From IMG/VR virus record IMGVR_UViG_2671180577_000007: DNA of 7,323 nucleotides; one strand, written 5' to 3'. Under the pieces are notes generated by a model. That model did no database searches and was not told the DNA's origin. It saw nothing but the letters and a program-made list of their open reading frames with translations. Each line of letters begins with the position of its first letter. Position 1 is the stretch's first letter. The position numbers and the translations under genes are program-made. Shown here piece after piece: positions 1,372 through 4,770 of this stretch. Origin of the DNA: a virus. Taxonomy: Duplodnaviria; Heunggongvirae; Uroviricota; Caudoviricetes.

Positions 1372-4300
1372 ATGGGTAAAGGCAGCAGTAAGGGGCATAC
1401 CCCGCGCGAAGCGAAGGACAACCTGAAGTCCACGCAGCTGCTGAGTGTGATCGATGCCATCAGCGAAGGGCCGGTTGAAGGTCCGGTGGATGGATTAAAA
1501 AGCGTGCTGCTGAACAGTACGCCGGTGCTGGACACTGAGGGGAATACCAATATATCCGGCGTCACGGTGGTGTTCCGGGCCGGTGAGCAGGAGCAGACAC
1601 CGCCGGAGGGATTTGAATCCTCCGGCTCCGAGACGGTGCTCGGTACAGAAGTGAAATATGACACGCCGATCACCCGGACCATCACGTCGGCAAACATTGA
1701 CCGTCTGCGTTTTACTTTCGGCGTGCAGGCACTGGTGGAAACCACCTCAAAGGGGGACAGGAATCCATCGGAAGTCCGCCTGCTGGTTCAGATACAACGT
1801 AACGGTGGCTGGGTGACGGAAAAAGACATCACCATTAAGGGCAAAACCACCTCGCAGTATCTGGCCTCGGTGGTGGTGGGTAACCTGCCGCCGCGCCCGT
1901 TCAATATCCGGATGCGCAGGATGACGCCGGACAGCACCACAGACCAGCTGCAGAACAAAACGCTCTGGTCGTCATACACCGAAATCATCGATGTGAAACA
2001 GTGCTACCCGAACACGGCACTGGTCGGCGTGCAGGTGGATTCGGAGCAGTTCGGCAGCCAGCAGGTGAGCCGTAATTATCATCTGCGTGGGCGCATTCTG
2101 CAGGTGCCGTCGAACTATAACCCGCAGACGCGGCAATACAGCGGTATCTGGGACGGAACGTTTAAGCCAGCATACAGCAACAACATGGCCTGGTGTCTGT
2201 GGGATATGCTGACCCATCCGCGCTACGGCATGGGGAAACGTCTTGGTGCGGCGGATGTGGACAAATGGGCGCTGTATGTCATCGGCCAGCATTGCGATCA
2301 GTCGGTGCCGGACGGTTTTGGCGGCACGGAGCCGCGCATCACCTGTAATGCGTACCTGACCACACAGCGCAAGGCGTGGGATGTGCTCAGTGATTTCTGC
2401 TCTGCGATGCGCTGTATGCCGGTATGGAACGGGCAGACGCTGACGTTCGTGCAGGACCGACCGTCGGATAAGGTGTGGACCTATAACCGCAGTAATGTGG
2501 TGATGCCGGATGATGGTGCGCCGTTCCGCTACAGCTTCAGCGCCCTGAAGGACCGCCATAATGCCGTTGAGGTGAACTGGATTGACCCGAATAACGGCTG
2601 GGAGACGGCGACAGAGCTTGTGGAGGACACGCAGGCCATTGCCCGTTACGGTCGTAACGTCACGAAGATGGATGCTTTTGGCTGTACCAGCCGGGGGCAG
2701 GCACACCGCGCCGGGCTGTGGCTGATTAAAACAGAACTGCTGGAAACGCAGACCGTGGACTTCAGCGTGGGTGCCGAAGGGCTTCGCCATGTACCGGGCG
2801 ATGTCATTGAAATCTGCGATGATGACTATGCCGGTATCCGCACCGGCGGGCGCGTGCTGGCGGTAAACAGCCAGACCCGGACGCTGACGCTCGACCGTGA
2901 AATCACGCTGCCATCTTCCGGCACCACGCTGATAAGCCTGGTTGACGGGCAGGGGAGTCCGGTCAGCGTGGAGGTTCAGTCCGTCACCGACGGCGTGAAG
3001 GTGAAAGTGAGCCGTGTTCCTGACGGCGTTGCTGAATACAGCGTATGGGGGCTGAAGCTGCCGACGTTGCGCCAGCGCCTGTTCCGCTGCGTGAGTATCC
3101 GTGAGAACGACGACGGCACGTATGCCATCACCGCCGTGCAGCATGTACCGGAAAAAGAGGCCATCGTGGATAACGGGGCGCACTTTGACGGCGACCAGAG
3201 CGGCACGGTAAATGGTGTCACGCCGCCAGCGGTGCAGCACCTGACCGCAGAAGTCACCGCAGACAGCGGGGAATACCAGGTGCTGGCCCGCTGGGACACG
3301 CCGAAGGTGGTGAAGGGCGTGAGCTTCCTGCTTCGCCTGACCGTGGCAGCGGATGACGGCCGTGAGCGGCTGGTCAGCACGGCCCGGACGACGGAAACCA
3401 CTTACCGCTTCACACAACTGGCTCTGGGGAACTACAGGCTGACAGTCCGGGCAGTAAATGCGTGGGGGCAGCAGGGCGATCCGGCGTCGGTATCGTTCCG
3501 GATTGCCGCACCGGCAGCGCCGTCGCGGATTGAGCTGACGCCGGGCTATTTTCAGATAACCGCCACGCCGCATCTTGCGGTTTATGACCCGACGGTACAG
3601 TTTGAGTTCTGGTTCTCGGAAAAACGGATTGCGGATATCAGGCAGGTTGAAACCAGCGCGCGTTATCTTGGTACGGCACTGTACTGGATAGCCGCCAGTA
3701 TCAATATCAAACCGGGCCATGATTATTACTTTTATATCCGCAGTGTGAACACCGTTGGCAAATCGGCATTCGTGGAGGCCGTCGGTCGGGCGAGCGATGA
3801 TGCGGAAGGTTACCTGGATTTTTTCAAAGGCAAGATAACCGAATCCCATCTCGGCAAGGAGCTGCTGGAAAAAGTCGAGCTGACGGAGGATAACGCCAGC
3901 AGACTGGAGGAGTTTTCGAAAGAGTGGAAGGACGCCAACGATAAGTGGAATGCCATGTGGGCTGTCAAAATTGAGCAGACCAAAGACGGCAAACATTATG
4001 TCGCGGGTATTGGCCTCAGCATGGAGGACACGGAGGAAGGCAAACTGAGCCAGTTTCTGGTTGCCGCTAACCGTATCGCGTTTATTGACCCGGCAAACGG
4101 GAATGAAACGCCGATGTTTGTGGCGCAGGGCAACCAGATATTCATGAATGAAGTGTTCCTGAAACGCCTGACGGCCCCCACCATTACCAGCGGTGGAAAT
4201 CCACCGGCATTTTCCCTGACACCGGACGGAAAGCTGACTGCTAAAAATGCGGATATCAGTGGCAGTGTGAATGCGAACTCCGGGACGCTCAACAACGTCA

Positions 4301-4770
4301 CGATTAATGAGAACTGTCAGATTAAGGGGAAACTGTCAGCCAATCAGATTGAAGGCGATATTGTCAAAACGGTCAGCAAGTCTTTCCCCCGCACGAACAG
4401 TTATGCCAGTGGCACCATCACGGTAAGAATCAGTGATGATCAGAAGTTTGACCGGCAGGTCATGATACCTCCAGTGTTATTCCGCGGTGGTAAGCATGAG
4501 AATTTCAACAGTAATAACCAACAGTCATACTGGTATTCAACCTGCCGGTTAAGAGTGACCCGCAATGGTCAGGAGATTTTTAATCAGTCCACGACGGATG
4601 CTCAGGGCGTATTTTCCTCAGTTATAGATATGCCTGCCGGACAGGGGACACTGACACTGACATTCACCGTATCTTCATCAGGAGCGAATAACTGGACACC
4701 AACAACCAGTATCAGCGATCTGCTGGTTGTGGTGATGAAGAAATCCACAGCAGGTATCAGTATCAGCTGA
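1372..4770 (+). CDS. J: Tail tip attachment / host specificity protein J (1132 aa) with a divergent C-terminal receptor-binding region
   Basis: Single 3399-nt ORF with GGAG 7 nt upstream of the ATG. The product starts [34 protein letters not shown] and contains FN3-like segments; length and most of the sequence match lambda gpJ as recalled. The last ~150 aa differ from lambda while keeping alignable anchor motifs (FDRQ, VIDMPAG, GIS). Confidence 0.95.

Follow-up and report, generated by a model that had tools for sequence, protein, structure and literature searches.

A lambda-like tail attachment gene J carrying a C-terminal domain of the A8/phi330 OmpC-binding type

A distal tail gene cluster related to lambda and 434

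The window, by which we mean the whole stretch of DNA analysed here (7323 nt), contains the distal tail module of a lambda-like phage or prophage, as judged from its open reading frames and Pfam domains:

143-742: K, NlpC/P60 domain
640-1311: I, Lambda_tail_I domain
1372-4770, plus strand: J, tip attachment protein or central tail fibre (open reading frame of 1132 aa with six gpJ Pfam domains)
4838-5437, plus strand: lom (Ail/Lom outer-membrane protein), 434-type allele (Pfam PF06316 Ail_Lom, E = 5.8e-117)
5496-6815: stf, side tail fibre, with phage_tail_N, collagen repeats and Phage_fiber_C
6817-7086: small gene with a Phage_fiber_C domain

The order K, I, J, lom, stf is that of lambda, the cluster is colinear with the annotated lambda and 434 records, and all of these genes as well as the one downstream of stf are intact open reading frames. 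For the window as a whole, the best phage matches are 'Lambda h434 imm21', 2B8 and 434 (about 96% identity over 92% of the window), and among E. coli genomes a prophage of strain Z1323HEC0108 matches best (99.7% over nt 1-7130); homology to these closest relatives ends at nt 7130-7153.

Several features of the genes surrounding J deserve mention. The lom gene is 95-98% identical to that of 434 at the DNA level and only 36-66% identical to that of lambda, to which homology resumes at nt 5310 (at 88%); it forms a second mosaic block, adjoining the J cassette described below. A scan for terminators found none between J and lom and only one after lom, at 5464-5485, where a strong hairpin of terminator type, with 7 G-C pairs out of 8 and TTTTT following, lies between lom and stf. 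The stf gene is intact in the window (439 aa) and frameshifted in the 99.7%-identical Z1323HEC0108 prophage. It harbours collagen-like triplet repeats (Pfam Collagen at aa 253-311) and an internal direct repeat (6279-6409 versus 6378-6517, about 70% identical), and its GC content is very high (0.65-0.69) with a strong AT skew, especially over 6279-6517. The 89-aa open reading frame at 6817-7086 shares the Phage_fiber_C domain (E = 1e-36) with the C-terminus of stf and is annotated as a tail fibre assembly chaperone in the 434-hybrid record and as a tail fibre C-terminal domain protein in RefSeq; a hairpin with a T-run lies 3' of it, at about nt 7104-7127. Finally, the end of an IS66-like element occupies 7171-7323, about 85 nt past the last tail-fibre-related gene. 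Copies with 99% identity to this end are present on more than 900 plasmid records, in which the matching stretch overlaps a gene annotated as the accessory gene tnpA; in the window, a tnpA reading frame appears to start near nt 7263.

This setting raises the question of whether the locus belongs to a defective prophage, in which case the C-terminal module of J, whatever its specificity, would not currently be used for infection. The IS66-like element abuts the tail-fibre genes and the prophage may be damaged elsewhere, its nearest genomic relative carries the frameshifted stf, and several copies of the J module are found in many E. coli genomes (in up to 8 places per genome). However, every gene from K to the one downstream of stf is intact in the window, and we consider a defective prophage unlikely. 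We infer working tails from this prophage. In any case, the question concerns activity and not the binding target of the domain, and a defective prophage would be compatible with the explanation proposed below.

A conserved J backbone with a divergent C-terminus

J has the length of lambda gpJ (1132 aa), and six Pfam gpJ models (FNIII-A, Phage-tail_3, two Ig_J, Phage_Tail_Tip and Ig_GpJ_C) exceed their curated cut-offs in it, with E-values of 1e-34 to 1e-43. We aligned J with the J proteins of lambda (NC_001416), the 434 type (OM418627) and PhiR30_1 (PV340558). In blocks of 50 residues, protein identity to lambda J is 94-100% up to residue 950, 80% at residues 951-1000 and 38-42% beyond. In BLAST comparisons of the DNA, the alignments to lambda and to 434 both break off at nt 4328 (96.8% identity over 1-4328), and mismatches to lambda turn dense from nt 4292, which corresponds to codon 974. 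J can thus be divided as follows:

1372-4242, plus strand: lambda/434-type J backbone (hub, FNIII/Ig domains, helical shaft and fibre prism), from the per-block protein identity to lambda
4291-4767, plus strand: predicted receptor-binding module of the A8/phi330 OmpC-binding type, residues 974-1132, from protein identities and a PDB match
4393-4767, plus strand: Pfam PF12421 Ig_GpJ_C, Ig-like C-terminal receptor-binding domain, residues 1008-1132 (E = 4.9e-36; 124 bits versus a cut-off of 26.2)

The first-pass annotation of this DNA had placed the loss of similarity to lambda at about residue 975 (nt 4290), and the onset of dense mismatches bears this out. It had also listed three anchors kept across the divergent region, all of which are recovered in the alignment: FDRQ is present in the window, lambda and 434, VIDMPAG reads IVDMPAG in lambda and VIDMPSG in 434, and GIS reads GISIS in the window, GISVV in lambda and GISIR in 434. 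The same alignment, which that annotation had proposed as a check, gave 43% identity to lambda over residues 974-1132, far from the more than 90% that would have spoken against divergence. As far as the sequence can tell, the fold family of the J C-terminus is unchanged and only the specificity-bearing sequence differs.

The divergent end had further been described as AT-rich, and this part of the claim stands: its GC content is 47% versus 58% for the rest of J (nt 4329-4770, GC 0.473 and GC3 0.524; nt 1372-4328, GC 0.580 and GC3 0.706), and the difference from nt 1372-3570 is marked (z = -5.0). The GC of the equivalent segment is 0.554 in lambda, and that of the 434 domain is 0.479. What does not stand is the position of the drop. 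The best single GC change-point in J lies at nt 3547, where GC falls sharply from 0.60 upstream to 0.50 downstream, and the J genes of lambda and 434 have it at the corresponding position, within sequence that all three share; at the joint itself, the step from 0.515 in the preceding 758 nt to 0.473 in nt 4329-4770 is not significant (z = -1.39). Because the change-point falls in shared sequence and the joint shows no significant step, we rejected GC content as a marker of the joint. All members compared have lower GC in the distal third of J. One possible reading of the change-point at nt 3547 is that an older boundary between modules runs here, with the hub and Ig domains of J on one side and its fibre part on the other.

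Borders of the module and its presence on different backbones

The left border of the module can be placed in a short interval:

4243-4290, plus strand: joint interval, codons 958-973, conserved in all J types compared; crossover most likely here

The most informative comparison is with J of phage phi330 (vB_EcoS_phi330, PV189401, Pankowvirus). Its DNA is about 77% identical to the window over 1369-3825 and about 65-81% identical per 100-nt block up to about nt 4242, but 98-99% identical over 4279-4770, showing that the same cassette sits on two clearly different backbones. Mismatches to the phi330 backbone become sparse at nt 4242 (with one more at 4281), and the left crossover most likely occurred within nt 4243-4290, based on these sequence comparisons. 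The right edge lies at about the J stop codon: mismatches to 434 are dense up to nt 4767 and sparse from nt 4771. Homology to 434, lost at nt 4329, is regained at about the stop codon and then extends at 95% as far as nt 7153, covering lom, stf and the gene after it. The suggestion that a mosaic joint lies inside J is therefore supported on two counts, namely the presence of the module on the differing phi330 backbone and the two-sided divergence from 434.

Receptor-binding domains are known targets of host-range selection, as exemplified by the lambda J host-range mutants, and the divergence might be argued to reflect rapid diversifying selection acting in situ on the receptor-binding loops, without recombination; a second allele with 82% protein identity (see below) does point to some gradual divergence within the type. 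Nevertheless, we regard this scenario as very improbable: the phi330 module is nearly identical in DNA despite the divergence of the J backbone that bears it, the transitions relative to 434 are sharp at both ends, and the whole domain is affected (about 55% of residues), not the loops alone. Exchange by recombination remains our preferred reading of the joint. The fusion point of published engineered chimeras, lambda gpJ residue 964 (PMC11338833), falls inside the joint interval; the stretch in which natural recombination likely took place is the same short conserved stretch that engineers later picked to join their constructs.

The predicted receptor of the module and its natural distribution

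When the last 253 residues of J were compared with PDB sequences, the top match was 'A8 gpJ 713' (9wca and 9wcb), identical except for E927D. This difference sits in the backbone, upstream of the joint, and residues 928-1132 are 100% identical. The link to A8 is made through the PDB chain name together with the sequence; the '713' label follows that of the Ge & Wang gpJ truncation from residue 713, used for the LamB complex (PMC11101478). A search with E. coli OmpC showed that entry 9wcb, which has three gpJ chains, also contains three OmpC chains; judged by this composition, it would be a complex of a gpJ trimer with an OmpC trimer.

Functional data are available for two carriers of the domain. 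Brödel et al. (Nature 2024) fused natural gpJ C-terminal parts to lambda gpJ and thereby changed the receptor from LamB to OmpC (PMC11338833). Equipped with a P2-type side fibre, A8 delivered DNA into about 95% of MG1655 lamB/ompC double-deletion cells carrying MG1655 OmpC on a plasmid, versus 1.9% for wild-type lambda on the same strain (PMC11338833). Delivery by A8 into this E. coli K-12 double mutant takes place only by way of the plasmid OmpC. A8 was effective on most of 23 OmpC variants, and A8, a second chimera named 1A2, or both were effective on 21 of the 23 (PMC11338833). For phi330, tested on 54 Keio outer-membrane mutants, plaques were missing only on the ompC mutant and were rescued by ompC complementation (PMC12502783). 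The attribution of this OmpC dependence to J came from an AlphaFold3 model and not from a J swap (PMC12502783), and the side tail fibre of phi330 could in principle contribute to it. J and side-fibre effects are separated in the A8 chimera, since its side fibre was of the P2 type. The two hairpins predicted to contact OmpC are identical in phi330 and the window (phi330 J numbering is offset by 90 residues):

4498-4527, plus strand: hairpin E1043-S1052, equivalent to phi330 E953-S962; identical, AlphaFold3-predicted to point into the OmpC barrel
4684-4701, plus strand: hairpin of residues 1105-1110, equivalent to phi330 A1015-P1020; identical, AlphaFold3-predicted OmpC contact

Both contacts are predictions of the phi330 AlphaFold3 model and not measurements (PMC12502783). 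A receptor-prediction preprint of 2026 treats the gpJ of Drexlerviridae and does not inform the present case.

The known systems resemble the window to different degrees. Over residues 974-1132, protein identity is 100% to PhiR30_1 and to the Z1323HEC0108 prophage, 99% to phi330, 46% to 434 and, as stated above, 43% to lambda; at the DNA level, the module is 99-100% identical to that of PhiR30_1 J. A8 shares the domain, identical from its fusion point at aa 964 to the C-terminus, the lambda-type backbone and OmpC as receptor, but it is an engineered fusion onto Ur-lambda J with a domain that was amplified from a private strain of E. coli, whereas the J of the window is natural, departs from lambda in about 3% of backbone bases and has E927 instead of D927. 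The phi330 domain carries two substitutions (N1009S and S1010T) and is likewise followed by lom; however, its backbone is the distant one described above, its J is annotated as 1042 aa, and the phage is Stx2a-converting and belongs to another genus. In 434 (h434 host range), the J backbone is 96.9% identical in DNA up to nt 4328, lom, stf and the downstream gene match at 95%, the receptor is also OmpC and the GC of the domain is similarly low, but high identity to the 434-type domain was not found, and that domain is 5 residues longer and has other loops. A different OmpC-binding mode has been predicted for 434 (PMC12502783). Taken with the 46% identity and the different loops, this makes 434 a separate OmpC-binding type. 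Finally, the LamB-binding domain of lambda gpJ (PDB 8XCJ and 8IYK) shares PF12421, the position of the Ig-like domain, the length and the anchors, but its receptor is LamB and its GC is 0.554 versus 0.473; high identity was not found here either, the 43% being accompanied by indels in loop regions.

The expectation that a swapped C-terminus would mean a different receptor has thus gained support from the identity of the domain to that of OmpC-using A8, from its deposition with OmpC in 9wcb and from the ompC requirement of phi330. That the divergent allele still binds LamB, its specificity unchanged despite sequence drift, as its common Pfam family and anchors with lambda and the equal length of J might suggest, is extremely improbable given that the chimera bearing this very domain is active in cells deleted for lamB and requires OmpC, that the identical domain was deposited with OmpC and that phi330 forms plaques on all of the tested Keio mutants other than ompC.

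The divergence, the joint, the identity to an OmpC-binding domain and the occurrence of one cassette on different backbones are shown directly. With high confidence, we propose that the receptor-binding domain encoded by nt 4291-4767 is an exchanged cassette that binds OmpC instead of LamB. The exchange would have proceeded by homologous recombination, with a left crossover in nt 4243-4290 and a right edge at the end of the gene. The domain would keep the Ig-like fold of the lambda gpJ C-terminal domain and differ in the receptor-contacting loops, by which it would bind the trimeric porin OmpC in place of LamB. By analogy with lambda, binding of the trimeric tip would constitute irreversible adsorption and trigger tail-tip opening and DNA ejection. 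The domain layout of lambda gpJ and its binding-triggered opening have been described (PMC11101478). Extrapolating from this structural work, the trimeric domain may insert loops into the porin trimer, binding may spread the bases of the domain, and this spreading may pass up the fibre prism and helical shaft, both conserved here, until the tail tip opens. A trigger shared with lambda would fit the conservation of the backbone as far as residue 973. A phage with this J should infect lamB mutants and fail on ompC mutants.

The feature itself is already known: the window carries, in a natural J, a gpJ domain of the A8/phi330 OmpC-binding type. Genetic work on this domain, engineered delivery vectors built with it and a deposited structure already exist, and nothing here is new to biology. 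The locus rather illustrates, in textbook fashion, how lambdoid phages exchange host range in modules: a cassette of about 480 nt at the end of J would retarget the tail tip from LamB to OmpC. For annotation, sequence alone is enough to predict OmpC as the receptor of this prophage.

The module is widespread, being present in roughly one in four complete E. coli genomes. With a 403-nt core (4329-4731), matches were obtained in 2458 of the 5426 complete E. coli genomes. Identity is 95% or more in about 1480 records and 60-80% in a further 947 or so, where the examples listed, at about 76%, represent a sister allele. In strain B1.H1.39, this sister allele is 82% identical to the module in protein and keeps both contact hairpins; it lies in the locus NZ_CP146556.1, 543-3941, with about 76% DNA identity to the module of the window. 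It could be the published '1A2' variant. Considering the existence of two alleles, and nothing further, one may speculate that in the natural setting, with a 434-type side tail fibre and the present backbone, the phage has an OmpC-allele-restricted or dual-porin host range, unlike the engineered A8 particles. We give this little credence; if it were so, the wide spread of the cassette and the sister allele would reflect an arms race with OmpC variants. Among phage records, 44 contain the segment at 95% identity or more, and many of these are long-tailed Stx-converting phages.
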